NCBI GenBank assembly: GCA_965242725.1
Contig: CBDESZ010000015.1
Span: 1 to 64,000, forward strand
DNA length: 64,000 nucleotides
Direction of reading: 5' to 3'
Source of the DNA: Alkalispirochaeta sp.
GTDB lineage: Bacteria > Spirochaetota > Spirochaetia > DSM-27196 > Alkalispirochaetaceae
A program made the position numbers and the translations under genes. Shown piece by piece: positions 9,206 to 23,878 of the stretch. The notes beneath the pieces were generated by a model. That model was not told the origin of the DNA. It saw only the letters and a list, made by a program, of their open reading frames with translations, and did no database searches. Each line of letters starts with the position of its first letter. Position 1 is the stretch's first letter.

Positions 9206-11227
9206 ATGAACGTACGATCCTTTCGTATGGTCGCCATTGTCGCACTGATCGTGATCAGCGCCGGTTGGGCATATTCGCAACAGGCCGCGGATGCCGACGG
9301 GCGTGTGGATTTCACGCTTCAGCTGCTGCACTTTGCCGATATCGACGGTAATGAGGAGCGCGCACTCGATGCGGTCGATGAGTTTTCGGCGCTGGTAAAC
9401 GCCTTTCGTCGCGATCCAACCTACGGTGCGGCAACTGTTGTTGTCAGTTCCGGGGACAACATCATCCCGGGACCGCGCTATTTTGCGGCGGAGCAGGGTG
9501 CGGTCCGGGCGGTTACCGGAAGCAATGAACCGGGCCACGCAGACATCGCCTTTATGAATGCCTTCGGTGTCGCCGCATCGGCGTTGGGAAACCACGATCT
9601 CGACACCGGCCCGGGGGAGCTGGTGGACTCAATGAGCCCGGAGGCAACCGACTCAGCGTCCTTCCCGGGAGCCCTCTTTCCCTATCTGGCGGCAAATCTC
9701 GATTTTTCCACCGACGGCGATACGGCGTCCCGTGTCGGGCCGGCCGGCGGGAGCGTGGGGGATCTGGCCGGCAAGTTTGCCGCTTCGGCGGTTGTCTCGG
9801 TTGGCGGTGAACGAATCGGCCTCGTCGGCGCCTCAACGCCGACGCTCTCGACGATTACATCCACCGGTGGAATCGGCGTCAGTCCGGAAGGGACGGGATT
9901 TGCGATGGCCGATCTGGCCGCGGCGATACAGCCGGCTGTGGACGCCCTCGTCGCCGACGGAATCGACAAGGTGATCCTTCTCTCCCACATGCAACAGATA
10001 CGCGTCGAGCGCGAGCTCGCCACACTGCTGAGAGATGTGGACATCATCGTCGCCGGAGGATCCAACACCCGCATGGGCGACGCAACGGATGAACTGTTTC
10101 GGGGGGACGACGCATTCCAGGCGGCATACCCCTTTATCACCGAAGGCGCCGACGGCAATCCGGTTATCGGGGTGAACGTCGACGGTGACTACAAGTACCT
10201 CGGACGCCTCGTCGTCGGATTTGACGACCGGGGAGTCGTGGTCGTCGACAGCCTCAATGAACAGCTGAACGGCGCGTGGGCCAGCAATCCCTCCGTCGTC
10301 GCGCGGGTCGGCGGTCGTCCGATACCGCAGGTGGTCCGGGTGCGGGACGCCCTTACGAGCGTCATTACCGCCCAGTTCGGCAACGTCCTCGGGTACACGA
10401 GTGTATATCTCGACGGCCGTCGCAGTCAGGTACGCACAGAGGAAACAAACCTCGGTAATCTGACTGCCGATGCAAATCTGTGGTACGCCAGTCGGCTGTC
10501 GCCGCAACGCGTCGACGTTTCCATCAAGAACGGTGGAGGTATCCGGACCGAGATCGGAGCTGCGGTGGTGCCGCCGGGGTCGGTGGACTACGCCAATGCC
10601 GTCCTGTCACCGCCACCGGCACGGGACGACACGGGGACGGCGGAAGGGGCAATCACAGAAGGTCATTTGCGCGCGACATTGCGCTTTGACAACGGCCTCG
10701 CTCTGCTGACCGCCACCGCCGCGGAGCTCAAGATGGTGCTGGAACACGCGGTGGCGGAGACCGCGCCGGGGCAGACGCCGGGACGCTTTCCGCAGATCGC
10801 CGGTATGCGCATACGCTTTGACGCGTCGGCGCCGGCGGGCAACCGGATTCGATCCCTGGAAATCCTCAACGAGGACGGCTCCGTACGCGATACCGTCGTG
10901 TCGGGAGGGGCGATCCGTGGGAACGCCAACCGAACCTTTCGCATCGTCACACTCAACTTTCTCGCCAACGGCGGCGATGACTACCCCTTCGGCCAATTGG
11001 CGAACCCGAACAGGATGAATCTCTATGAAGGAGCCGGTTTCGGCGAGGACACTGACTATCCCGATGCAAACCTCGCAGCCGATCCCGGACGAAATTCGAG
11101 CTTCAGCTACACCGGGGGCGAACAGGATGCCCTCGCGGAGTACCTTCTGGCGATGCACGCCACTCCCGCGACGGCGTACAGTCAGGCCGAATTCAGCCGC
11201 GGCAACGACCGGAGAATCCGTTACTGA
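9206..11227 (+). CDS. secreted bifunctional metallophosphatase / 5'-nucleotidase
   Basis: Signal peptide; LLHFAD, SSGDN, GNHD, ETNLGNLTADA, NGGGIR, FPQIAG, FLANGGDDY; AGGAGG before ATG 9206. Confidence 0.9.
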   Translation: MNVRSFRMVAIVALIVISAGWAYSQQAADADGRVDFTLQLLHFADIDGNEERALDAVDEFSALVNAFRRDPTYGAATVVVSSGDNIIPGPRYFAAEQGAVRAVTGSNEPGHADIAFMNAFGVAASALGNHDLDTGPGELVDSMSPEATDSASFPGALFPYLAANLDFSTDGDTASRVGPAGGSVGDLAGKFAASAVVSVGGERIGLVGASTPTLSTITSTGGIGVSPEGTGFAMADLAAAIQPAVDALVADGIDKVILLSHMQQIRVERELATLLRDVDIIVAGGSNTRMGDATDELFRGDDAFQAAYPFITEGADGNPVIGVNVDGDYKYLGRLVVGFDDRGVVVVDSLNEQLNGAWASNPSVVARVGGRPIPQVVRVRDALTSVITAQFGNVLGYTSVYLDGRRSQVRTEETNLGNLTADANLWYASRLSPQRVDVSIKNGGGIRTEIGAAVVPPGSVDYANAVLSPPPARDDTGTAEGAITEGHLRATLRFDNGLALLTATAAELKMVLEHAVAETAPGQTPGRFPQIAGMRIRFDASAPAGNRIRSLEILNEDGSVRDTVVSGGAIRGNANRTFRIVTLNFLANGGDDYPFGQLANPNRMNLYEGAGFGEDTDYPDANLAADPGRNSSFSYTGGEQDALAEYLLAMHATPATAYSQAEFSRGNDRRIRY

Positions 11228-11235
11228 CTGATACG

Positions 11236-11265
11236 GCGGGCGGCGCGGACGCGTCGCCCGCTTTT
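11236..11265 (+). terminator. intrinsic terminator
   Basis: GCGGGCGGCGC-ggac-GCGTCGCCCGC then TTTT, just after the nucleotidase stop. Confidence 0.7.
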
Positions 11266-11356
11266 CCCCACCGAATCTCCGATTTGACCTTGCCCTCGGC
11301 GGCAACTCTTCCTATGATGCGGAACCTGAATCCCTTTGAGCTGGAGGTGCCTTACG

Positions 11357-11626
11357 ATGCGGGCCGTGATAACGGTAGTGGGAAATGATAAGCCGGGAAT
11401 AATTGCCGCGGTGAGCGGAGCGCTGGCGGAGAAAAACGTCAACATCCTCGATATCAGTCAGACGATCATGCAGGATGTCTTCACCATGTTCATGCTCGTG
11501 GAGACGGGCGCGATGGACATCTCCTTCAAACAGCTGCGGAACCTGCTCACCGAGCTGGGAACCCAGATCGAAATGAGCATAAACATGCAGCACGAAGACG
11601 TCTTTCAGTCGATGCATCGCATTTAG
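11357..11626 (+). CDS. ACT domain protein (UPF0237)
   Basis: MRAVITVVGNDKPGIIA...NILDISQT...FQSMHRI; usual partner of UPF0210. Confidence 0.92.
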   Translation: MRAVITVVGNDKPGIIAAVSGALAEKNVNILDISQTIMQDVFTMFMLVETGAMDISFKQLRNLLTELGTQIEMSINMQHEDVFQSMHRI

Positions 11627-11635
11627 AGAGGTACC

Positions 11636-13000
11636 ATGCTGCTTTTTTCTCCCTTTGAAATTCGTGAAACGACACAAATGCTCACCGAGCAGAATCTCGA
11701 TATTCGAACGATCACCATGGGCATCAGTCTGCTCGACTGCGCCGGAACGAGCCCGAGACAGGCGCGCCTGAAGGTCTACGACAAGGTAACCTCCGCAGCG
11801 GAGCGGCTCCTGGAGGTTGGTGAATCCATAGAAGTCGAGTACGGCATACCGATCATTAACCGACGCATTTCAGTAACGCCGATCTCTCTTCTCATAGAGG
11901 CGACCGGTGAAAAAGAGCCCATCGAATTCGCCAGGACCCTCGACCGGGCGGCACAGGCGGTGGGCGTCGATTTTCTCGGCGGGTACAGCGCCCTTGTACA
12001 CAAGGGAATGACTCCGGGAGAGCAACGGCTCATCGACAGCATTCCCGACGCCCTTGCGGAGACGGAGAAGGTGTGCGCCTCGGTGAACGTCGCCACCAGC
12101 CACGCCGGCATCAACATGAACGCGGTAGCCCACATGGGTGAGGTGATATACCAGCTTGCACGGAACACGGCGGACCGGGGCGGATTCGGCAACGCCAAGC
12201 TCGTCGTCTTTTCCAACGTCCCCGAGGATAATCCGTTCATGGCCGGCGCCTTTCACGGAATAGGGGAGTCGGAACGGGTTATACACGTCGGCGTGAGCGG
12301 CCCCGGCGCGGTCTTTTCCGCCGTCCGGGAGCACCCCGACGCCACCTTTGACGAGATCGCGGAAATCGTAAAGAAGACCGCCTTCAAGATTACCAGAATG
12401 GGACAGCTCGTACTCGGCGTCGCCGCCGAACGTCTCGGCGTGGAGCCGGGTATCGTCGATCTCTCCCTCGCGCCGACACCGGCTGTGGGTGACAGCGTCG
12501 CCCGCATCCTCGAGGCGATGGGTATCGAGCATACCGGCGGTCCCGGCTCAACGGCCGCCCTTGCGCTCCTCAACAACGCGGTGAAGAAGGGGGGCATGAT
12601 GGCCTCCTCACGAGTCGGCGGACTGAGCGGTTCCTTCCTGCCGGTGAGTGAGGACGAGGGCATGGCGGAGGCGGCGGAGCTCGGCGCCCTCTCCATAGAG
12701 AAGCTCGAGGCGATGACGGCGATCTGTTCCGTCGGCCTCGACATGATCGCCATTCCAGGGGATACCTCACCGTCGACGATTTCCGGAATCATCGCCGACG
12801 AGATGGCCATCGGCGTCATGAACGGCAAGACCACCGCCGCCCGACTCCTGCCCGTTCCCGGCAAAACGGCGGGCCAGTGGGTCGAGTTCGGCGGTCTCCT
12901 CGGGCGCGCGCCGATCATGCCGGTAAGCGCATTTTCCTGCGAGGATTTTGTCCGTCGCGGCGGAATCATTCCCGCCCCGATTACCTCTTTCAAGAACTAG
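11636..13000 (+). CDS. PFL-like family protein (UPF0210/DUF711)
   Basis: [45 protein letters not shown]. Confidence 0.93.
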
Positions 13001-13803
13001 GCGGGACCCACGACCGGATTGACCAGCTTTCCGATTTTATCGATTTCCAGCTCCATCACATCCCCCTCTTTTAAAAAGACAGGGGGGGTGCGAGTAAAGC
13101 CGACGCCGCCGGGGGTGCCTGTGAGGATAAGGGTTCCTGCCGGCAGCGTAGTGTCCTCCGACACATAGCGAATAATCTCGGCCACCGAAAAGATCATGTC
13201 CGATGTGTTTGTCTTCTGCATCACTTCGCCGTTCAGGCGGCAGGTCAACTCCAGTTTCTGGGGGTCGCCGATTTCGTCCGGAGTGACCAGACAGGGTCCG
13301 AGGGGGCAGAAGGTGTCGAAGCTTTTGCCCCGAACCCATTGCCCTCTCCCGGCATTTTTCTGCCAACGCCGTGCGGAAATGTCATTGGCTACCGTATATC
13401 CCGCAACGCTATCGAGTGCGGTCTCCAGGGTGGCGTCTCGGACAGACTTGCCGAGAACGACTGCCAGCTCGGCTTCGTAGTCCACCTCCGGTGTCTTCGC
13501 GCAGACTTTCGGGATCACGATAGGATCGTCAGGATTGGCGACGGTATTCAGGTTCTTCATGAACAGGGTGGGGTATCGGGGCAACTCATTACCCGTTTCT
13601 TCCGCGTGGGCGTGGTAGTTCAACCCAATGCAGAGAATACCGGTCGGTATAAAAGGTGCCAGCAGTTTCTTGACGGCCACCCTGTTGCCGGTGACCGTAA
13701 GGGATGAGAAAAAATCCCCTTCCAGGACGCTCGCCATGCCGTCCCGGTAGTCGCAGCCGAGAACGATATCGCCCTGTCCGTCGATAAATCGTATGATCTT
13801 CAT
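12997..13803 (-). CDS. fumarylacetoacetate hydrolase family protein
   Basis: [38 protein letters not shown]. Confidence 0.93.
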
Positions 13804-13865: not shown

Positions 13866-15074
13866 CTAAAGGACCGCTCGTACAATTTCGTCAAACTCGT
13901 CATCCGTCAGCAGTCCGCGTTTGGCGATACCCACCTTCTTTACCCGCAGGACCAGTTCCTCGACGGTTTCATCGGAGACATCGGTGTATCCCTTTCTTTC
14001 CAGGTGATACAGTATGGAAAGTTTCCCGCTCTTTTTTCCGAGGACGACATCGCCGTTGCGACCCGTCAGTTGTGGTTCGGTGGCAAACATCGCCAACGGC
14101 TTTTTTATGACGAGATCTACGCCGATACCCGATTCCCGCGTGAAGTTACGCGGACCGATCACCGGTTTATTGACCGCCGGTGTAATCCCGGTGATGGATT
14201 CGATTTTCGATGCAAGATCAACGAGCCGATCCATTCTATACGGATTTGGTAGCTGGTACAGAACCTTCATCGCCATTATCAATTCTTCAGTTGCCGTGTT
14301 CCCGGTTCGTTCACCGAGACCGTTGGCGGCTCCGTGAACAACATTCGCGCCCGCTTCAAGGGCCGCGAGCTCAGTAGCGAGGGCCATCCCGAAATCGTTA
14401 TGAGTGTGTATTTCGACGGGTAATCCCGTTTTATTTATCACATGACGGACAAGGTATTTAATCGCAGTAGGCAATGCGCAGCCTACGGTGTCGACGATAC
14501 CGATACTGTCGGGCGGCGCATCCCGCATAATGCCTTCCAGAAGGTGTTCGAGATCCTCAAAACGCGCCCGGGTTGTATCGTACGGGAAGTATACCGTGTG
14601 CAGTCCATGCTCCCGTGCATAGTTGATTACCGGGACACTCCTCCTCAAAACCTCCTCCCAGGTCCAGCCGAATTGATATACAAGCTTGGGATATCCAATA
14701 GGTATCTCAATAATGACACCGTCCACGCCCGCATCGATAGCACTGTCTATATCGTCTTTTCTCGCTCGTGCGAACGAATATATTTTTGCATGAAGCCTGG
14801 CATTCACTATTGAACGGATCGCAGCGAAATCGTCTTCCGAGACGGCAGGCATGCCGGCCTCAATACGCTCGACACCAACGCCGTCGAGGAGACGGGCAAT
14901 TTCAAGTTTATTTTCCGGAGTCATCACCACTCCCGGCGTTTGCTCTCCGTCCCTGAGCGTCACATCATGGATTATCACGTTGTCCGGTATAGAAAATTCG
15001 CTCTCCACGGGATCAACATAATTATAAGGGCTTACCCACCACTGATCGGGTTTGTGATACTCATGTTTACTCAT
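13866..15074 (-). CDS. DRE-TIM metallolyase, homocitrate synthase/LeuA-like, no regulatory domain
   Basis: DVTLRDGEQ, HTHND, GLGERTGN, LGKKSG; RBS before ATG 15074. Confidence 0.88.
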   Translation of the reverse strand: MSKHEYHKPDQWWVSPYNYVDPVESEFSIPDNVIIHDVTLRDGEQTPGVVMTPENKLEIARLLDGVGVERIEAGMPAVSEDDFAAIRSIVNARLHAKIYSFARARKDDIDSAIDAGVDGVIIEIPIGYPKLVYQFGWTWEEVLRRSVPVINYAREHGLHTVYFPYDTTRARFEDLEHLLEGIMRDAPPDSIGIVDTVGCALPTAIKYLVRHVINKTGLPVEIHTHNDFGMALATELAALEAGANVVHGAANGLGERTGNTATEELIMAMKVLYQLPNPYRMDRLVDLASKIESITGITPAVNKPVIGPRNFTRESGIGVDLVIKKPLAMFATEPQLTGRNGDVVLGKKSGKLSILYHLERKGYTDVSDETVEELVLRVKKVGIAKRGLLTDDEFDEIVRAVL

Positions 15075-15227: not shown

Positions 15228-16736
15228 TCAGTAAACTCCGGTCCACCCACCTATCACGTAAACCGTCATGGCGACAATGAAACTGGCAACCACGGTCATG
15301 ACCGTTCCGGCAATCGCCATATCCTTTATCGAGAAATACCCCGCCGAATAGGGGATCACATTTGTTGGAGTCGATGTAACCAGGATGAATGCCATACTCG
15401 TGGTGAGTGCCGCCGGAATCGCTATGGAGAGAACGTCAATGTTCAACGTCGTCGCCAGTGTGATCATGATTGGAATGATTATTGTCGCGGTAACGGTATT
15501 GCTCGAGAGGAATATCTTCAGGAACCCGATAATGAGCACAACGAGAAAGACCCTGACAAACGGTCCGAGAGAGCCGATGCCGCCAAGAAAAACCACCGCC
15601 ATCCATTCTACCGACCCGGTTCGGTACAACGTTATTCCGAGGGAAATTCCGGAAACAATAAGGATAATGCTGTCCCAGCTGATCTCTTTTTCGATCGTTT
15701 TCCAATGTTCTCTTCCCACGCCGGGAAAGAAAAAGAGACTCGCCGTCAGGAGGACGGGCATTGAGATTGGAATGTCGATTCCGAGAAGCTTCTCCAACAG
15801 CGGCGTTGTAATCCAGAGGGCGACGGTGAGCAGAAAGATCGCCAGAGTTACTTTCTCGGTCCTATCCATCGCCGGAAACTCATGGTACGCCGCACGCAAT
15901 TCCTTTTTTGTTTTTTTGAGGTGCTTCATCTCGGGCTTGAAGAAGAAAAGGAGCATTGCCCAGGAGGGCAGTATTAACAGTATTCCGGCGGGGACACCGT
16001 ACATCATCCAACCTGCAAAGGTAAGTTTGATACCCGCCAATTCATCGAGGAACTCTATCGTCAAGGGATTGGGGCCCGCACCGGAAGGCGCCATGATTCC
16101 GCCGATAATCGGTCCCCACGCGCAGGCAATCATAAGTGCCTTTCCAAAGTTGCTCTTTAAGGGAGTTACACCTTCTTCGCGTAGAACGGCAACACCTAAT
16201 GGCATAAGCATGGCGGCGACCGCGGTATTCGTGATCCACATCGAAAGAAATCCTCCAACTACCAGAAAACCGAGGAGGATCATGGAAGTCCGATTGCCGG
16301 TTCTGGAGAGAAGAAACGCCGACACGCGATCACCGAGGTTGCTCCGGGTTATGAAACTCGAAAGCACCAGGACACCGATAAAGAAAATGAAAATATGGTT
16401 GCCGAAACCGGCTTGAACGATAGAGGAGAAGGAATCGACCCTTAACACGGTGAGGAGAAATACACCGAACAGTCCAGTGATATGGAAGGGAAGGGCTTCC
16501 GTAATCCATAGAATCAGCGCGAAGAGCAACACCCCAACGGCTGCCTGACCGTCCCGGGTCAATTCGGCGGCGCCAGCAATACGAATTGACCCGGGGAGAG
16601 AAAAAAAGCGGCCTGCCAGTGGAAAGACCAGTGCTATTGCGATCACGGCCCATTGAAAGGTGAGGCTCCTCTTCCCGCCTATGGAGGGCTTGGTATTCGA
16701 AGATCTGTCGATCCGTGGATGTATCGGTCCGTTCAT
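15228..16736 (-). CDS. DASS/SLC13 di-/tricarboxylate transporter
   Basis: SMWITNT, PSGAGPN, SSNT, TSTPTN motifs; many TM helices. Confidence 0.9.
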   Translation of the reverse strand: MNGPIHPRIDRSSNTKPSIGGKRSLTFQWAVIAIALVFPLAGRFFSLPGSIRIAGAAELTRDGQAAVGVLLFALILWITEALPFHITGLFGVFLLTVLRVDSFSSIVQAGFGNHIFIFFIGVLVLSSFITRSNLGDRVSAFLLSRTGNRTSMILLGFLVVGGFLSMWITNTAVAAMLMPLGVAVLREEGVTPLKSNFGKALMIACAWGPIIGGIMAPSGAGPNPLTIEFLDELAGIKLTFAGWMMYGVPAGILLILPSWAMLLFFFKPEMKHLKKTKKELRAAYHEFPAMDRTEKVTLAIFLLTVALWITTPLLEKLLGIDIPISMPVLLTASLFFFPGVGREHWKTIEKEISWDSIILIVSGISLGITLYRTGSVEWMAVVFLGGIGSLGPFVRVFLVVLIIGFLKIFLSSNTVTATIIIPIMITLATTLNIDVLSIAIPAALTTSMAFILVTSTPTNVIPYSAGYFSIKDMAIAGTVMTVVASFIVAMTVYVIGGWTGVY

Positions 16737-16740
16737 CGTG

Positions 16741-17631
16741 TCATGTCCCCGTTGTCAAGACGGATTTGAGAAGTTCCCCAACAAGACGCGGCCGTTCCGC
16801 GACCAACGCCCCGGCATCGGTCAATGCGGCGATTTTGTCTTCAACGGAACCGGTTCCTCCGGATACAATGGCACCGGCATGTCCCATCTGCTTACCTTCC
16901 GGAGCGGTCCGGCCCGCGAGAAAGGCGACCAACGGTTTGGTAAACCGTTTCTCGATTATCTCCTTCGCTACCTCCTCCTCCATCGTACCCCCGAGTTCAC
17001 CGATAACGACCACCGCTTCAGTCTCCGGGTCCTCTTGGTACCTGGGTAGCATCTCCGCAAAACGGGTGGCCGGAACGGGGTCACCACCGATCCCGATCAA
17101 GGTGGAAACTCCAAAACCCGCCGCGACGACCATAGAAGTCACTTCATTGGTCAGGCTCCCGCTTCGTGTCATAACACCGATAGAGCCCGGTTTATATACG
17201 CGGTCTATCCAGTATGGAAAAAAGCCCATCATCGCCTTACCGGGGCTGATTACTCCACTGGTGTTTCCGCCGATGACCACAGCTTCGGCCGCTCTGGCGG
17301 CGTGCCGGATCTTTACCGCATCGTGAAGGGGTATCCCGTCGGCGACGGCGACAATCTTCTTGATACCCGCCTCAAGCGCTTCAAGGACAGCGTCCATGGT
17401 GAGGTGAGGGGGAACAAAAATGATAGACGAGTCCGCCTCTTCCGACGCCAATGCCTGTTGAACGGTGTGGAAGACGGGAATGTCATGGATGCGCCTGCCA
17501 CCCTTTCCCGGGGTGACGCCGCATGTGACGGCGGTACCCATTTCCAGGATGTGCTTTGTCCAGAAACTCCCCTCCGTTCCCGTGATACCCTGGACGAGCA
17601 CCCGTGAGTGCCGATCTATAAAAATGCTCAT
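16741..17631 (-). CDS. sucD: ADP-forming acyl-CoA ligase alpha subunit (SucD-like, divergent)
   Basis: VQGITG, GVTPGKGG, GIGGD, phospho-His motif MGHAGA; ATGA overlap with the beta subunit. Confidence 0.88.
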   Translation of the reverse strand: MSIFIDRHSRVLVQGITGTEGSFWTKHILEMGTAVTCGVTPGKGGRRIHDIPVFHTVQQALASEEADSSIIFVPPHLTMDAVLEALEAGIKKIVAVADGIPLHDAVKIRHAARAAEAVVIGGNTSGVISPGKAMMGFFPYWIDRVYKPGSIGVMTRSGSLTNEVTSMVVAAGFGVSTLIGIGGDPVPATRFAEMLPRYQEDPETEAVVVIGELGGTMEEEVAKEIIEKRFTKPLVAFLAGRTAPEGKQMGHAGAIVSGGTGSVEDKIAALTDAGALVAERPRLVGELLKSVLTTGT

Positions 17632-18752
17632 CGGCGCCTCTCCTTCCGGGATATCTCGACGGCACGGCGGACCGCTTCTTCCGTATCGAGGAGCGGTTGC
17701 AGTCCGGCCGCTTTGAGCGTCTGAAATGCCTCTTTCTCGTTTGTTCCGCGGATACATGTGATGATCGGTACGTCCGGTCTGAGTCTGGTGATCGCCTCGA
17801 CCACCCCCTGTGCCATTACGTCGGCTCGGGCTATTGTCCCGAACGTCACGATGAGAATAACTTTGGGATTGGTCCGGAGGCAGAGCTCCATCGCTTGTAC
17901 CGCTTTCCGATAGTTGGGACCGCCAAACTCCAGATAATTGGCGATGGTGCCCCCTTCGTAGTGTACAAGATCAAACACAGTGGTAGTGAGGCCGGCTCCC
18001 GCACACATGAGACTGATATCACCATCAAACGGGAGATAAGGGATTCCCTCTCGTGCCGCGTCGCGTTCTATCTCGGTCTGATACGGTTTTTCCTTGATCC
18101 ACGTCTGGCGGTTGAGGGAGTTATTGTCGATCGCGATCTTTCCGTCACCGGCTATGAGCCGATCGTCGGATGTGACAAAGAGGGGGTTGATTTCCGCAAT
18201 CTCGCAATCGAGTTCCTGAAAGATTGAGCCGAGGTTGACCAATACGGCAACGACTTTTTGTGCCACCTCCGGTGAGAGGTCGAAGGAGTATGCAAACTGT
18301 CTCGCTTCAAACGGACGGATTCCCAGGGCGAGGTCAAAATGAGACCGGACAATTGATTGCGGCCTGGTTTTTGCCAGTGTCTCTATTTCCACACCGCCCT
18401 CGGTCGATCCGATAATAAGACCTGAGGCAGAAACAGGATCGACGGTAACGGAGAGGTAAAGTTCTTTACGAAAATCAATTGCCTCTTCGATCAGAACCCG
18501 TTCTATTTGATTCGCCGAATTATCGAGCAGAGCGTCCGTTTCCGCGACCGCCTCTTCATGTGATGCAGCAAATCGAATCAGTCCTGCCTTTCCCCGTCCG
18601 CCCTGAAGTATTTGCGCTTTCACAACGCACGGCACGCCTGTGTGATCCAACGCATCCGATACTTCACTTGGACTGGAGACGAGATAGCTCCGCGGAACCG
18701 GAATGCGGTGTACCGAGAAGATCTCTTTTGCCTGATACTCAAATAAATTCAC
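17628..18752 (-). CDS. sucC: ADP-forming acyl-CoA ligase beta subunit (SucC-like, ATP-grasp, divergent)
   Basis: NLFEYQAK, KAQILQGGRGKAG, GGVEIE, EINPL, GAGL; GTG start. Confidence 0.88.
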   Translation of the reverse strand: MNLFEYQAKEIFSVHRIPVPRSYLVSSPSEVSDALDHTGVPCVVKAQILQGGRGKAGLIRFAASHEEAVAETDALLDNSANQIERVLIEEAIDFRKELYLSVTVDPVSASGLIIGSTEGGVEIETLAKTRPQSIVRSHFDLALGIRPFEARQFAYSFDLSPEVAQKVVAVLVNLGSIFQELDCEIAEINPLFVTSDDRLIAGDGKIAIDNNSLNRQTWIKEKPYQTEIERDAAREGIPYLPFDGDISLMCAGAGLTTTVFDLVHYEGGTIANYLEFGGPNYRKAVQAMELCLRTNPKVILIVTFGTIARADVMAQGVVEAITRLRPDVPIITCIRGTNEKEAFQTLKAAGLQPLLDTEEAVRRAVEISRKERRR

Positions 18753-18862: not shown

Positions 18863-19579
18863 ATGAAAGAGGATTCATTTCACAAGGAGATCGGCGAGAA
18901 ACGTCCGATTCAAGCCATCGAAAAACCGGAAAGTCTCCGGAAGGAAGTTTACGAGCGCATCAAGAACGCCATAGTTACCAATAAATTCAATCCGGGACAG
19001 CGCCTGGAAGAAAAATACCTGAGTGATTCACTGGAAGTGAGCCGAACACCGATCCGTGAGGCTCTCACACGGCTGGAGCACGAAGGACTCGTCGGATCAA
19101 TTGCCAATCGTGGTTCATTTGTCAAACGTTTTACCGTCAAAGATATTCTCGAAATACTGGAACTAAGAGAGGTGAACGAGGGATTGGCAGCGCGGCTCTT
19201 TGCCGAACGTGCGGCCGAACAGGATGTGATGGAGTTGCGTGGAACTATGACGCCTTTCAACGTTGATACCGTTGAAGACAATATCGACGAATACAATCAG
19301 GCGAACGTTGAATTTCACAACATTGTCATGCAGGGCGCTCGAAACGGACGATTGGTCGCCGCGCTGGAGAACCTCTATGACCACTACGCGGTAGCCACGA
19401 CTCTGCGTATCATTCCTCTTACCAAGAGGGGCGCGCGATCCCTTCGGGAGCATCTGCGGATTATCGCGGCGATAGAGGAGAGGGATTCTCAGAAGGCGGA
19501 AGAGGAAATGCGCCTGCATATTCGGTCGATCATCGACGATTTCATACGGAGCTCAGACGAAGTTTCAGATTTGATGTAG
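18863..19579 (+). CDS. GntR family regulator (FCD domain)
   Basis: LEVSRTPIREAL HTH; NVEFHNIV and EHLRIIAAI FCD motifs. Confidence 0.95.
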   Translation: MKEDSFHKEIGEKRPIQAIEKPESLRKEVYERIKNAIVTNKFNPGQRLEEKYLSDSLEVSRTPIREALTRLEHEGLVGSIANRGSFVKRFTVKDILEILELREVNEGLAARLFAERAAEQDVMELRGTMTPFNVDTVEDNIDEYNQANVEFHNIVMQGARNGRLVAALENLYDHYAVATTLRIIPLTKRGARSLREHLRIIAAIEERDSQKAEEEMRLHIRSIIDDFIRSSDEVSDLM

Positions 19580-19881: not shown

Positions 19882-20883
19882 ATGATGAGTAGACTCACGA
19901 GAATTGCACTTGCGCTTGCCCTTATATTCGCAGTTGCAATATTTTCCGTTTCCGGAGCTGGTCAGGCGGAGCAAGAGCAGGCTATGTCTGCGGATTACCC
20001 AAATGACAATATTACCGTCTACGTTCCGTTCTCGGCAGGTGGCAGTACCGATCTCATGGCGCGTATAATCGCAGAGCCGCTCGGAGAGATTCTGGGAGTA
20101 CCGATGGTTGTTGAGAATAGACCTGGAGGCGGTGGAGCCATCGCTATGAATGCACTGTCGATTGCCGACCCGGACGGGTATACGATCGCCCTTACCTCTC
20201 TTGGTCCGGCGATGCTGACGCCAAACCAGGGAGATGTCGGTTATACTGATGAAGAGTTTGCGCCCATCAGTCAGACCTCTTTCCTTCCGTCGATGCTGTT
20301 TGTAAGTTCAGATTCACCATATGAAACGTTGGCGGAATTGGTTGCGGCGGCGAAAGGTATGCCCGGTGAAATGACCTATTCCTCTACCGGTGCCGGCGGA
20401 ACGGGGCATGTCGCGTGTGAATTGTTTCAGGAAGAACTGGGTGAGAAAGGCCTGTTCAATATGGTTCCCTTCGATAGCGGGACAGAGGCTACCACGGCGG
20501 TGTTGGGCGGACATATCGAGTTCAGCCTTGGTGACGCCGGTGATACCGCGGATCACGTTGCAGATGGAAACCTGAGAGTTCTCGCGATAGCATCGGAAGA
20601 ACGGGATCCGATGTTTCCCGACGTACCTACGTTCCGGGAACTGGGATATGACGTCGTTATCGGACCGTGGTGGGGATTTGCCGCACCAGCCGGAACACCA
20701 AAAGAGATTATTGATATACTGGATGACGGAATTAAACAGGCGCTGGAAAATCAAAATGTTGTACGGCAAATGATGAACATCAATAGTCCGGTGGTATACA
20801 CGGAAACCACGAAATTCACCGAGAATTGGCATCGGGATTTCGATATGTATCGGACGATGATTCAGGCGATACAGGGAAATTAA
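19882..20883 (+). CDS. tctC: tripartite tricarboxylate transporter substrate-binding protein
   Basis: VPFSAGGSTD, VENRPGGGG, PDGYT, PDVPTFRELG. Confidence 0.93.
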   Translation: MMSRLTRIALALALIFAVAIFSVSGAGQAEQEQAMSADYPNDNITVYVPFSAGGSTDLMARIIAEPLGEILGVPMVVENRPGGGGAIAMNALSIADPDGYTIALTSLGPAMLTPNQGDVGYTDEEFAPISQTSFLPSMLFVSSDSPYETLAELVAAAKGMPGEMTYSSTGAGGTGHVACELFQEELGEKGLFNMVPFDSGTEATTAVLGGHIEFSLGDAGDTADHVADGNLRVLAIASEERDPMFPDVPTFRELGYDVVIGPWWGFAAPAGTPKEIIDILDDGIKQALENQNVVRQMMNINSPVVYTETTKFTENWHRDFDMYRTMIQAIQGN

Positions 20884-20894
20884 ATACTAACACT

Positions 20895-20937
20895 GTACCG
20901 TGCCAAGGTAGTTGGTGCCTGGTCAATGGCACGGTAC
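20895..20937 (+). other. 11-bp stem-loop after tctC
   Basis: GTACCGTGCCA (20895-20905) and TGGCACGGTAC (20927-20937). Confidence 0.6.
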
Positions 20938-20964
20938 GACTGTCCGTCGGGACAACCAAAAAGT

Positions 20965-21000
20965 TTGACAGCGGTATTTGCGCATGGTAACATGTATACA
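20965..21000 (+). promoter_or_regulatory. internal sigma70-type promoter for tctBA with TGTATACA palindrome
   Basis: TTGACA-N17-TAACAT with extended TG, overlapping TGTATACA. Confidence 0.7.
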
Positions 21001-21114
21001 AATACAAACATACATCGAATCACTGGTGGCATATAGGTTGCGGCGGTTCAAAGAGTCCTGGTTGCACGTCATAACGAGGAGGTGAGAATCGAGTTAATTG
21101 CTTGATGCTAAATT

Positions 21115-21567
21115 ATGAAAAAAATATCTATGGATCTAATAGTTTCATCGCTGTTTTTCATATCTGGATTGGGAATGCTTGCCGTTTCGTCCCAGTTACC
21201 ATTCCGTACAAACGTTACGAACTTTGCCGGTCCGGGAACATTTCCCGTCGGGCTGACGATTATCATAGTATTTTTTTCTGGAATTTTAATCGTAAAAGAA
21301 GTTATCAGGATTTCAAAGGGAACTGCAAACGCTTTAAAAATAACAAAAAATGATCTAATTAGAGTTGTTTCAATTATTGTAAGTTCAATCATATACATTG
21401 AACTTCTTCCCGTGGTCGGTTATTTGGCGGCCACTATCGGATTTACCGCTCTGGCTTTATGGATATTTGGATTCCGTAAAAAATTGCCTTTCGCAGTTAT
21501 TACGATTGTATTTCCCCTCGCTATTCTCGTCATTTTCAAGGAATTTCTCAATATTCCACTACCATGA
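21115..21567 (+). CDS. tctB: tripartite tricarboxylate transporter TctB
   Basis: 4 TM, GPGTFP, C-terminal FLNIPLP. Confidence 0.88.
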   Translation: MKKISMDLIVSSLFFISGLGMLAVSSQLPFRTNVTNFAGPGTFPVGLTIIIVFFSGILIVKEVIRISKGTANALKITKNDLIRVVSIIVSSIIYIELLPVVGYLAATIGFTALALWIFGFRKKLPFAVITIVFPLAILVIFKEFLNIPLP

Positions 21568-21586
21568 TACATAGGAGCGGAGCAAA

Positions 21587-23062
21587 ATGGGTTTTGCACT
21601 GAATTTTGTTGTTAATGCGCTGTTTTGTTTTTTAGGCACCAGTATTGGAATTGTCTTTGGTGCCATTCCCGGTCTGACCGCGACAATGGCTATCGCTCTG
21701 TTTTTACCTTTTACCTTCGGCATGGACCCGGTGTTGGCCTTTGCCCTTTTGTTGGGCCTCTATGTCGGGGGCGTTTACGGCGGATCGATAACTGCCATCC
21801 TGATCAATACTCCCGGTACACCGGGAGCGGCTGCCACCGCGGTGGAAGGGTATCCCCTGGCGAGACAGGGAAAAGCTTTGGACGCGCTGTCACTGGCAAC
21901 GGTGTCGTCATTTATCGGAGGAATGCTCAGTTGTGGAGTGTTGATCGTAATGGCCCCCCAGCTGGCCCGGGTGGCTCTACGGTTTGGACCGCCGGAGTAC
22001 TTCGCCATATCCCTCTTCGGGTTGAGCATGGTGTCCAGCATCGCATCGAAGAATATCGTGAAAGGAATAATAGCAGCCGCTTTCGGTCTGTTGGCGGCGA
22101 CGATAGGTATCGATCCGATAGTCGGAACGATGAGATTGACTTTCGGCAATCTGAATCTAGTTGCCGGGATTGGTCTGATCGCCTCGTTAATCGGTCTATT
22201 CGCAATTTCCGAAGTCCTCTCGAAACTGGAAACGATAAAACGAACCAAGGGGATAGAAGACAAAGACATCGAAAAAATAACCGGGAACTTTGTAAGTCTG
22301 AAAGTATTACGGGCAAATATTGTGAACTTTCTCAGATCCGCTGCAATTGGTATCGGAATCGGTTTAATACCAGCGGTAGGGGTGAGTATGTCGAATTGGA
22401 TCGCCTACAATGAAGCCAAACGGGCAACCAAGACACCGGAACTCTATGGAGAGGGTTGTTTTGAGGGAGTTGCCGCTTCAGAGACGTCCAACAACGCCGT
22501 TACCGGTGGTGCCCTCGTTCCAATGCTCACATTGGGAATCCCCGGAGACGCAATGACAGCTGTCCTGCTGGGTGCGTTGTTGATTCAGGGGCTGGCACCG
22601 GGACCAAAACTCTTCATAGATACCCCGGAGGTTGTGACCGGTATATACGGAATGCTGGCACTGGCAAACGTATTCATGCTGATCATCGGGCTCGGGATGA
22701 TTAACATTTTTGTAAAAATTATTAAAGTGCCGACAAACGTCCTGATGCCGCTTGTTCTGGTCATGTGCTATATCGGATCATATGCCATCCATAACAACTT
22801 CTTCGACGTATACGTCACGTTGTTTTTCGGTATTGTTGCATTCCTGTCCCTGAAGGCAAAGTATCCGCTTCCGCCGATGCTCTTAGGTATAATTCTGGGA
22901 CCAATAATTGAGTCCAATTTCAGACGGGCCATAACCATGTCCCGCGGCAGTTTGGGAATATTTTTTGAGCGCCCGTTGTCGGCGACATTTATCGTAATCG
23001 CCATTGTCGCAATGATCTATCCCGTGTTGAGGGAGTATATCAAGCCCAGGGTAAAGACGTGA
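21587..23062 (+). CDS. tctA: tripartite tricarboxylate transporter TctA
   Basis: GAIPGL, NTPGTP, ETSNNA, LTLGIPGD. Confidence 0.95.
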   Translation: MGFALNFVVNALFCFLGTSIGIVFGAIPGLTATMAIALFLPFTFGMDPVLAFALLLGLYVGGVYGGSITAILINTPGTPGAAATAVEGYPLARQGKALDALSLATVSSFIGGMLSCGVLIVMAPQLARVALRFGPPEYFAISLFGLSMVSSIASKNIVKGIIAAAFGLLAATIGIDPIVGTMRLTFGNLNLVAGIGLIASLIGLFAISEVLSKLETIKRTKGIEDKDIEKITGNFVSLKVLRANIVNFLRSAAIGIGIGLIPAVGVSMSNWIAYNEAKRATKTPELYGEGCFEGVAASETSNNAVTGGALVPMLTLGIPGDAMTAVLLGALLIQGLAPGPKLFIDTPEVVTGIYGMLALANVFMLIIGLGMINIFVKIIKVPTNVLMPLVLVMCYIGSYAIHNNFFDVYVTLFFGIVAFLSLKAKYPLPPMLLGIILGPIIESNFRRAITMSRGSLGIFFERPLSATFIVIAIVAMIYPVLREYIKPRVKT

Positions 23063-23086: not shown

Positions 23087-23878
23087 ATGGCGCGTATGAA
23101 CTCCTACGTAAAGATGGAGATTTCCGATAAGATCGTACTTCTGACCATTAACCGGCCGGGAGCGTACAATGCTATTAATCTACCTACGGCGCAGGAGCTT
23201 GCGGAACATCTCGTGACCTTGGGTTCCAATCGGCAGGTACAGGGGATCATTATCACCGGCGCGGGTACAGCTTTTTCAGCGGGCGGTGATATCCGGCAGA
23301 TGATGAACGACCCCGATGGCCCGGCGGCGACCTTTTCCCGACTCGCGGCCGTGGTAAACACCTGCATCACTGAGATTCGGCGGATGCGGAAACCGGTGGT
23401 TGCCGCAGTAAACGGGATCGCCGCCGGCGGCGGTTTTTCTCTCGCCCTGGCCTGTGATTTTCGAGTGATCGCCGGGACGGCGCGACTGAAACAGGGTTTC
23501 ACGACTAATGGTCTATGCATCGACGGCGGCGGCACCTTTTTGCTCCCCCGGCTGGTAGGGTTGGCGCGGGCCCTCGAAATTGCGGCCCTGGATGAACCGA
23601 TCACCGCAGAAGAGGCGCTGACACTGGGATTGGTCAATCGGGTGGTGGAACCCGACGAGGTCGTGGCCGCCTCCCGACGGCTGGTGGATCACATACGTCA
23701 AAAATCGCTGCATACCTTCGGCTGGTCCAAACTACTTTTGACCAACGCCTTCGAGACGCCGCTGGAAGCACAACTGGAAATGGAACGACAGGGACTGTTC
23801 AGCTGCGCCGCCCACGCCGACGGCCAGGAGGGAATGAAAGCCTTTCTGGAAAAACGAGCACCCCGTTTCAATCAGTAA
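23087..23878 (+). CDS. enoyl-CoA hydratase/isomerase family (PaaG-like)
   Basis: FSAGGD, VNGIAAGGG, LALACD, AFLEKRAP. Confidence 0.9.
   Translation: MARMNSYVKMEISDKIVLLTINRPGAYNAINLPTAQELAEHLVTLGSNRQVQGIIITGAGTAFSAGGDIRQMMNDPDGPAATFSRLAAVVNTCITEIRRMRKPVVAAVNGIAAGGGFSLALACDFRVIAGTARLKQGFTTNGLCIDGGGTFLLPRLVGLARALEIAALDEPITAEEALTLGLVNRVVEPDEVVAASRRLVDHIRQKSLHTFGWSKLLLTNAFETPLEAQLEMERQGLFSCAAHADGQEGMKAFLEKRAPRFNQ

Follow-up and report, generated by a model that had tools for sequence, protein, structure and literature searches.

A conserved enzyme of the DRE-TIM superfamily that lacks the Claisen-synthase triad: a candidate malonyl-CoA-forming cleavage enzyme in Alkalispirochaeta sp.

We analyzed a 64,000-nucleotide stretch of contig CBDESZ010000015.1 from Alkalispirochaeta sp. 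(assembly GCA_965242725.1), hereafter the window, in which one gene encodes a 402-amino-acid protein resembling homocitrate synthases. This protein is a real, conserved and misannotated enzyme, belonging to the DRE-TIM superfamily and descended from proteins of synthase architecture. It lacks the Glu-His-Tyr triad of the Claisen synthases and is very probably not a synthase; the reaction of its subfamily is probably new. The gene contexts and genomes of its relatives make it likely that the enzyme acts in catabolism, cleaving a C-C bond and making malonyl-CoA. More tentatively, we propose that it is a catabolic, CoA-using offshoot of the Claisen-synthase branch that splits a 2,4-dioxo acid by thiolysis into pyruvate and an acyl-CoA. 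To this explanation as a whole we attach a probability of about 0.42.

A ribosome-binding-site-like sequence precedes the ATG at position 15074, and a Pfam scan matched the protein to PF00682 (HMGL-like, 221 bits) and PF22617 (HCS_D2). The solved structures nearest in sequence are those of Sulfolobus acidocaldarius homocitrate synthase, Neisseria meningitidis LeuA, Schizosaccharomyces pombe Lys4 and Brassica juncea MAMS. Residues R41, D42, E72, H223 and H225, which together with the TIM barrel define the superfamily, are invariant, and the C-terminal subdomain of the synthases is evident from the PF22617 match, a structural alignment that runs through residue 402 and an invariant GKKSGK motif. 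The protein scored below the cut-offs of all NCBIfam synthase models (345/517, 328/485, 282/463, 268/414 and 139/450 bits, score/cut-off), and also below those of the HMG-CoA lyase model NF004283 (49.8 bits, cut-off 246) and the 4-hydroxy-2-oxovalerate aldolase model (70.5 bits, cut-off 286). Database sources call its relatives 2-isopropylmalate synthase (LeuA) or homocitrate synthase, the matches in the ESM Atlas bear automatic names only, and a plasmid collection contained no match at 1e-60. Besides this gene, the source genome has genes of the CimA and LeuA types, both of which retain the Glu and the His. A pseudogene or sequencing artefact was ruled out by the open frame and by the invariance of the replacements described below.

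The initial annotation of this gene had reported that the metal and oxo-acid motifs are intact and that the synthase Glu, His and Tyr are lost, and HMMER alignments to the solved synthases bear out both observations. The motifs LRDGEQ (residues 40-45), HTHND (223-227) and GERTGN (254-259) are present together with the carboxylate-binding DT (195-196), and the residues for the metal and the 2-oxo acid (R41, D42, E72, T196, H223, H225 and N259) are all kept. Tyr165 aligns with the Glu of 'fssed' in S. pombe Lys4 and of 'fsced' in N. meningitidis LeuA, Arg313 and Gly318 with the first and second His of 'hkagih'/'hesgih' (the second being MAMS His388), and Met329 with the Tyr of 'tye' (MAMS Tyr399); in the yeast homocitrate synthase the triad presumably corresponds to Glu155, His309 and Tyr320. 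No His occurs between residues 248 and 356, so a nearby His cannot substitute for the lost catalytic one. The protein has gained Glu123 at a position occupied by Phe in most synthases. The question raised earlier of whether equivalent Glu and His residues lie elsewhere is thus answered differently for the two: Glu123 is a candidate for the acidic residue, but the His has no nearby counterpart.

In a set of the 120 best sequences (the protein and 119 homologues at 62-89% identity), Y165, R313, G318, M329 and F330 do not vary, and neither do Arg41, Glu123, Thr196 and the GKKSGK motif. A profile search yielded 150 representatives, 130 of them at least 340 amino acids long and 128 scorable for the triad and Glu123. 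The complete Glu, His and Tyr were found in 31 of the 128, none of which has Glu123; in another 78 both Glu and His are missing, and 50 of those have Glu123. The other 19 are mixed. A FastTree tree of 194 sequences, midpoint-rooted and built without assayed enzymes, joined the 31 triad-bearing and 13 mixed sequences in one clade (support 0.98), separate from all triad-less sequences, and placed the window protein within a core clade of 36 (support 0.97). The triad-less proteins are therefore a conserved subfamily and not a product of decay. Carriers are dispersed over Alpha- and Gammaproteobacteria, Acidobacteriota, Desulfobacterota, Bacillota, Spirochaetota and other groups and are rare in each. 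Random class samples contained, besides the centre genomes, one new carrier in 400 Alphaproteobacteria and one in 399 scored Gammaproteobacteria, and a random sample of the phylum of Alkalispirochaeta sp. contained one carrier in 300. A search of the open-licence literature, with subscription papers outside its scope, found no description of a triad-less subfamily or of an acylpyruvate thiolase.

An AlphaFold model of the protein has a pLDDT of 86; the value drops below 50 at residues 312-324, so the model cannot confirm the positions of Arg313 and Gly318. Its best full-length structural match is 6ktq (Z 39.3, rmsd 3.1 Å, 362 residues), compared with Z 29-32 for aldolases and 28-30 for HMG-CoA lyases. 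Like the Claisen synthases 6ktq, 3ivs, 3rmj and 6e1j, the protein combines the fold and C-terminal helical subdomain with the R-D-G-E-Q helix, the HxH site, the Thr and GKxSG, and it also has no regulatory domain. It differs from them in the replacement of the Glu, both His and the Tyr, in the new Glu123, in sequence (about 30% identity) and in its catabolic context; the His/Arg/Ser side-chain pocket of homocitrate synthase is lost as well (F101, V161 and F163 here). The nearness in fold and full-length sequence to homocitrate and isopropylmalate synthases would suit a synthase that still condenses acetyl-CoA and uses Glu123 as a base in a new position, and a few distant members do adjoin lysine-pathway genes (L147, L148). 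Among the MAMS variants described in PMC11532901, E227Q, H388N and Y399F retain low activity, but E227A, H388A and Y399S are inactive, and the three replacements in the window protein are non-conservative. Recurrent neighbors of the relatives include no LeuCD/LeuB-type isomerase or dehydrogenase, importers and regulators surround the enzyme gene instead, and the genome encodes CimA- and LeuA-type proteins separately. A synthase with a relocated base is thus very unlikely, and the earlier proposal of a different, non-synthase reaction missed by automatic annotation is supported.

The genes around the relatives were identified by tblastn in the best 80 of 496 GTDB loci found, 51 of the 80 being at least 12 kb long. 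Across these loci the pocket motifs hardly differ from those of the window protein, and GKKSG is present in all 80. The setting is catabolic, with GntR regulators in 32 loci and TRAP DctM importers in 29. Malonyl-CoA decarboxylase (MCD) is encoded in 14 loci, no more than 1.5 kb from the enzyme gene in 10 of them, and occurs in two gene contexts, a dioxygenase cluster and a Gammaproteobacterial MetE-like context. Genes for CoA activation of any kind lie beside only four of the 80 relatives (CoA-transferases in three, an AMP ligase in one, SucC/SucD and SauS-type dehydrogenase in none) and are also present in the window, L154 and L161. The 14 MCD loci gave no match to SucCD, AMP-forming ligase, CoA-transferase or SauS-type aldehyde dehydrogenase.

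The link to MCD extends to whole genomes, since 18 of the 25 carrier genomes tested encode it. The association is strong in the Acidobacteriota, where MCD was found in seven of eight carriers, adjacent to the enzyme gene in none, versus 1 of 100 random genomes; in this one the only match is of the LeuA type, at 33%, and carries HEAGIH. All six MCD regions fetched, each of 12-14 kb, were free of CoA ligase genes.

A hydroxyquinol-type intradiol dioxygenase is encoded in 21 of the 80 loci; RutE-type reductases and YciI each occur in 18. The dioxygenases keep their iron ligands and have PnpC and (chloro)hydroxyquinol dioxygenases as their closest relatives, and the 21 loci gave no match to the Fe-ADH (maleylacetate reductase) family. 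In L074 the genes for TRAP, dioxygenase, YciI, MCD, enzyme and reductase follow one another on one strand. A cluster of this kind recurs in marine bacteria (L037, L049, L055-L059, L064, L065, L067, L072, L074, L075, L078-L080), comprising YciI, a RutE-like reductase, an OsmC-like protein, TRAP, the dioxygenase, GntR and the enzyme, often with GST and MCD; it has no monooxygenase or maleylacetate-reductase-family match and may serve to scavenge a hydroxyquinone anion. The anaerobe loci L054 and L102-L105 pair the enzyme gene with Mo-hydroxylase and cyclase genes, in the operon order GntR, XDH FAD/FeS subunits, cyclase, triad-less enzyme, XDH Mo subunit, likely for the breakdown of an N-heterocycle.

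Given a 2-oxo acid on the metal, a retained CoA subdomain, the absence of a base for acetyl-CoA and consumers of malonyl-CoA without a linked CoA-activating gene, the enzyme would most simply make the thioester itself. The simplest such reaction would be 2,4-dioxoadipate + CoA -> pyruvate + malonyl-CoA, in the direction of cleavage. The metal bound by Asp42, His223 and His225, together with Arg41 and Thr196, would grip the 2-oxo-acid end and stabilize the pyruvate enolate as the leaving group, the CoA thiol would attack C4 from the inherited CoA channel, and Glu123 would protonate the enolate at C3. In MAMS, the C-terminal domain contributes part of the CoA site according to the data given in PMC8468904. 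Since no acetyl-CoA would be deprotonated and no thioester hydrolyzed, the triad would be dispensable. The malonyl-CoA would pass to MCD in aerobes and, in the Alkalispirochaeta sp. genome, to an ADP-forming ligase yielding ATP and the free acid, which a DASS carrier could exchange. The 2,4-dioxo diacid could be supplied by the intradiol dioxygenase or, in anaerobes, by a Mo-hydroxylase with a cyclase, or with a creatininase and an aminotransferase. An intradiol opening of 1,2,3,5-tetrahydroxybenzene would yield 2,4-dioxoadipate in its enol form, and in anaerobes the same acid would arise from a 4-oxygenated pyridine carboxylate by hydroxylation and hydrolysis of the lactam. In fungi, the ring product of 1,2,3,5-tetrahydroxybenzene is described as cyclizing to 5-hydroxydienelactone and ending in acetopyruvate via a FAH-like protein (PMC10832562). 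A route from 2,5-dihydroxybenzoquinone to 3,4-dioxoadipate was set aside, as cleavage of an alpha-diketone would call for thiamine chemistry.

The MCD link and the missing CoA-activating genes would be explained equally well by an exchange like that of the BKACE (DUF849) enzymes, TIM-barrel proteins that bind a free keto acid at a metal and form a CoA ester without a Cys intermediate, using acetyl-CoA and releasing acetoacetate. A metal-bound beta-keto acid, e.g. 3-oxoglutarate, would here react with acetyl-CoA to give malonyl-CoA and acetoacetate, with no need of a His or Glu base. The precedent lies on another TIM barrel, and the window protein has no DUF849-type Pfam match. The intradiol dioxygenase, however, would yield C6 products and not 3-oxoglutarate, class I aminotransferase neighbors suggest a 2-oxo acid, and the Thr196 and Arg41 that serve such an acid are invariant. 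We consider this exchange unlikely.

The RutE-type reductase, which passes the cut-off for malonic semialdehyde reductase, could instead point to a cleavage that does not involve CoA, either by an aldolase (4-hydroxy-2-oxoadipate to pyruvate and malonate semialdehyde) or by an acylpyruvate hydrolase (to pyruvate and malonate), unlinked genes then supplying the malonyl-CoA. AFOR genes beside L012 and L150 are in keeping with this, DRE-TIM aldolases exist, and the window ligase could activate imported or released malonate. Cleavage of pyrogallol is described as giving 2-hydroxymuconate (PMC10832562). Such an enzyme would leave unexplained the conservation of GKKSG throughout the 80 loci and the adjacency of MCD without a match to ligase or acylating dehydrogenase. 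All 18 loci with the reductase, moreover, also encode the dioxygenase, and the reductase could be one that acts on quinones, for which TcpB offers a precedent. The aldolases DmpG, BphI and HsaF also act downstream of ring cleavage and share the metal-stabilized pyruvate enolate leaving group proposed here, but they are remote (Z 29-32, 24-26% identity), the score against the aldolase model is far below its cut-off, and they presumably carry an aldolase His motif in place of DGEQ. Their partner, an acylating dehydrogenase, was matched in none of the 80 loci with a SauS/AdhE-type query, a DmpF-type query not having been run. FAH-family acylpyruvate hydrolases would share the proposed substrate class and cleaved bond but have an unrelated fold and use water rather than CoA, so that the thioester energy is lost. 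A CoA-free cleavage is rather unlikely on this evidence.

The enzyme gene is the fourth of a same-strand operon in the window, after the genes for ligase beta, ligase alpha and a DASS carrier and before that for a FAH-family protein; a GntR regulator, a tripartite tricarboxylate transporter (TTT) and a crotonase lie on the opposite strand beside it (Table 1). The crotonase recurs in one of the 80 related loci. The ligase resembles the sulfoacetate-CoA-ligase type and not the citryl-CoA type. Its beta and alpha subunits share 35% and 46% identity with the SucCD of the same genome, and 54% and 63% with proteins of operons that combine TTT or DASS, an acylating aldehyde dehydrogenase and a ligase, named from Desulfovibrio and matched by sau layout, not to the assayed SauCD sequence. 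The acid-binding loop TFGTIARADV of the beta subunit is as in SauC-like proteins and unlike the genome's own SucC. The citrate-binding loop of citryl-CoA synthetase and ATP-citrate lyase reads GGIANFT, and the score of the window ligase against PF24948 was 34.9 bits (cut-off 83). SauCD acts as a sulfoacetate-CoA ligase of the ADP-forming kind, and this type is recorded in PMC10413351 with 7% activity on malonate. In contrast to the SauCD operons, the window operon has no SauS-like gene and pairs the ligase with a DRE-TIM enzyme, so no aldehyde step connects the two. The acyl product in the window may be malonyl-CoA or, given the adjacent ligase, sulfoacetyl-CoA.

Table 1. Genes and codons of interest in the window
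Feature	Coordinates	Strand	Remarks
FAH-family protein, last gene of the operon	12997..13803	-	may be a tautomerase, a decarboxylase or a hydrolase; no NCBIfam cut-off reached
Triad-less DRE-TIM enzyme (HMGL-like + HCS_D2), 402 aa	13866..15074	-	open reading frame, Pfam, alignments
GKKSGK, residues 346-351	14022..14039	-	basic C-terminal-subdomain motif kept from synthases; presumed CoA contact
Met329 codon	14088..14090	-	replaces stacking Tyr (MAMS Tyr399)
Gly318 codon	14121..14123	-	replaces catalytic His (MAMS His388)
Arg313 codon	14136..14138	-	replaces first His of H-E-S-G-I-H
Tyr165 codon	14580..14582	-	replaces synthase Glu (MAMS Glu227)
Glu123 codon	14706..14708	-	new invariant acidic residue, end of strand 4; candidate acid/base
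DASS-family anion symporter	15228..16736	-	40% to SauI-like transporter, 53% to DASS beside relative in L062
ADP-forming acyl-CoA ligase, alpha subunit	16741..17631	-	SauD/SucD-like
ADP-forming acyl-CoA ligase, beta subunit	17628..18752	-	loop TFGTIARADV
GntR/FCD regulator	18863..19579	+	divergent
Tripartite tricarboxylate transporter	19882..23062	+	tctC 19882-20883, tctB-like 21115-21567, tctA 21587-23062; linked by position only
Enoyl-CoA hydratase/isomerase family gene	23087..23878	+	linked by position only

This arrangement bears on the reaction suggested by the initial annotation, an acyl-CoA lyase or aldolase. In an HMG-CoA-lyase-like retro-Claisen cleavage, the ligase would make a 3-hydroxyacyl-CoA ((homo)citryl-CoA or 3-hydroxyglutaryl-CoA), the enzyme would split it into acetyl-CoA and an oxo compound, and the FAH protein would decarboxylate oxaloacetate. 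The order ligase-DASS-enzyme-FAH, with TTT and crotonase opposite, is compatible with such a scheme; HMG-CoA lyases, which share the Arg/Asp/Glu and HxH site, cleave the C-C bond of an acyl-CoA without the triad, and two paralogues in L154 stand beside SucCD and CaiB. HMG-CoA lyases, however, are only about 20% identical to the protein, lack the C-terminal subdomain and require a CoA-activated substrate, while CoA-activating genes are scarce beside the relatives despite near-identical pocket motifs. A conserved ligase-lyase pair was ruled out for the close relatives, none of the 80 having SucCD. The SauC-like loop also suggests a small acid, the lyase model is missed by a wide margin (50 against 246 bits), and MCD would go unexplained. 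The retro-Claisen lyase is accordingly distinctly unlikely; the earlier reaction proposal survives as non-synthase chemistry, and less well as a (homo)citryl-CoA lyase or plain aldolase.

The same layout of divergent GntR, ligase and carrier mirrors the matR-matABC malonate operons, and this genome has no match to MCD, which would also accord with an enzyme that consumes malonyl-CoA or sulfoacetyl-CoA, either by condensation with the acidic thioester or by biotin-free carboxyl transfer from malonyl-CoA to pyruvate, neither of which would need the lost base. Against this, MCD, or SauS with Xsc, would destroy the substrate within the same operon, and the MCD loci have no ligase to supply it; a consumer is highly improbable.

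Several observations weigh against the thiolysis of a 2,4-dioxo acid. The carrier Acidobacteriota are related, so that seven of eight does not stand for eight independent events, and the random baseline covers Acidobacteriota only. Among the anaerobe and spirochete carriers tested, MCD was present in none of six and a window-type ligase in only one of five. L178 has the marine cluster and MCD with no dioxygenase match, the window operon contains no ring-cleaving or ring-opening gene that would indicate a substrate, and the RutE-type reductase in 18 of 80 loci fits an aldehyde product. CoA binding by the enzyme is predicted from motif conservation. No case in which a free acylpyruvate undergoes thiolysis is known to us, and the open-licence literature search found none. 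The two L154 paralogues adjoin SucCD and a CaiB CoA-transferase in a lyase-like arrangement, and parts of the wider radiation may therefore be ordinary acyl-CoA lyases.

A distant triad-less branch at 40-44% identity (L153, L159, L160, L161, L144, L145) has genes for a Mo-hydroxylase, a creatininase and a class I aminotransferase as its common core. Its operons end either in a SauS-like gene and Xsc (L153 and L159, Xsc scoring above its cut-off, with no ligase seen in either region) or in SauCD-like and SauI-like genes (L161); the L153 copy of the enzyme carries internal stops. As judged from these gene assignments, the two endings share one metabolite, sulfoacetyl-CoA, an analogue of malonyl-CoA, and the operons seem to encode an undescribed pathway yielding it from a cyclic N/S compound.

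If thiolysis is confirmed, the triad-less proteins could tentatively be regarded as a fifth DRE-TIM reaction type, a large radiation of acylpyruvate thiolases that conserve energy as malonyl-CoA or sulfoacetyl-CoA. They would be energy-conserving counterparts of the FAH hydrolases and could in principle supply malonyl-CoA without ATP or CO2. In marine bacteria with hydroxyquinol dioxygenase but no maleylacetate reductase, they would complete an unrecognized route for the ring products of polyhydroxybenzenes; in anaerobes they would do so for N-heterocycle and sulfonate breakdown, with substrate-level ATP formation through the SauCD-type ligase in this genome. Many annotated isopropylmalate and homocitrate synthases would then be catabolic enzymes of other chemistry, separable by a simple check for the presence of Glu123 and the loss of the Glu and His. 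Many SAR116 genomes are stated in a 2026 preprint (10.64898/2026.07.17.739263) to have hydroxyquinol dioxygenase without maleylacetate reductase, read there as detoxification; the triad-less enzyme would offer a direct test of this question of marine aromatic metabolism.

Some further observations concern the ligase and the surrounding genes. Of the close ligase relatives, four long loci (L086-L089) contain no triad-less DRE-TIM enzyme, and a distant ligase locus (L097, 33%) has a LeuA-like neighbor. The MCD-less carrier L062 has a window-type ligase at 55%; in that genome (L177:3120-7595) the ligase follows genes resembling 2-oxoacid:ferredoxin oxidoreductase, not SauS, and the contig ends there. 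Another contig of the Alkalispirochaeta sp. genome (L106:3862-7656 and 9537-13099) carries a module of SauS-like dehydrogenase, CoA-transferase-like and HMG-CoA-lyase-like genes and a second SauS-like gene by an IolD-like gene, all named from inspection of the sequence and tblastn rather than family scans. In the window, a promoter and terminator scan was uninformative, giving 6 and 10 sites versus 5.7 and 7.6 expected by chance, and the stop codons of the FAH gene and a convergent DUF711 gene (+) share four bases (12997-13000).

A TRAP binding protein had only distant matches among solved structures, with no clue to its ligand. A stand-alone MetE-like gene (the catalytic domain of cobalamin-independent methionine synthase, scoring under the family cut-offs) is found repeatedly next to the enzyme gene or MCD, in L005, L006, L010, L011, L028, L030, L032, L042 and L185. 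The titles of L008, L028, L010 and L032 (Bordetella parapertussis, Klebsiella pneumoniae, Enterobacteriaceae) conflict with their gene context, which resembles that of Bryobacterales or other Gammaproteobacteria loci; these are probably mislabeled metagenome-assembled genomes.

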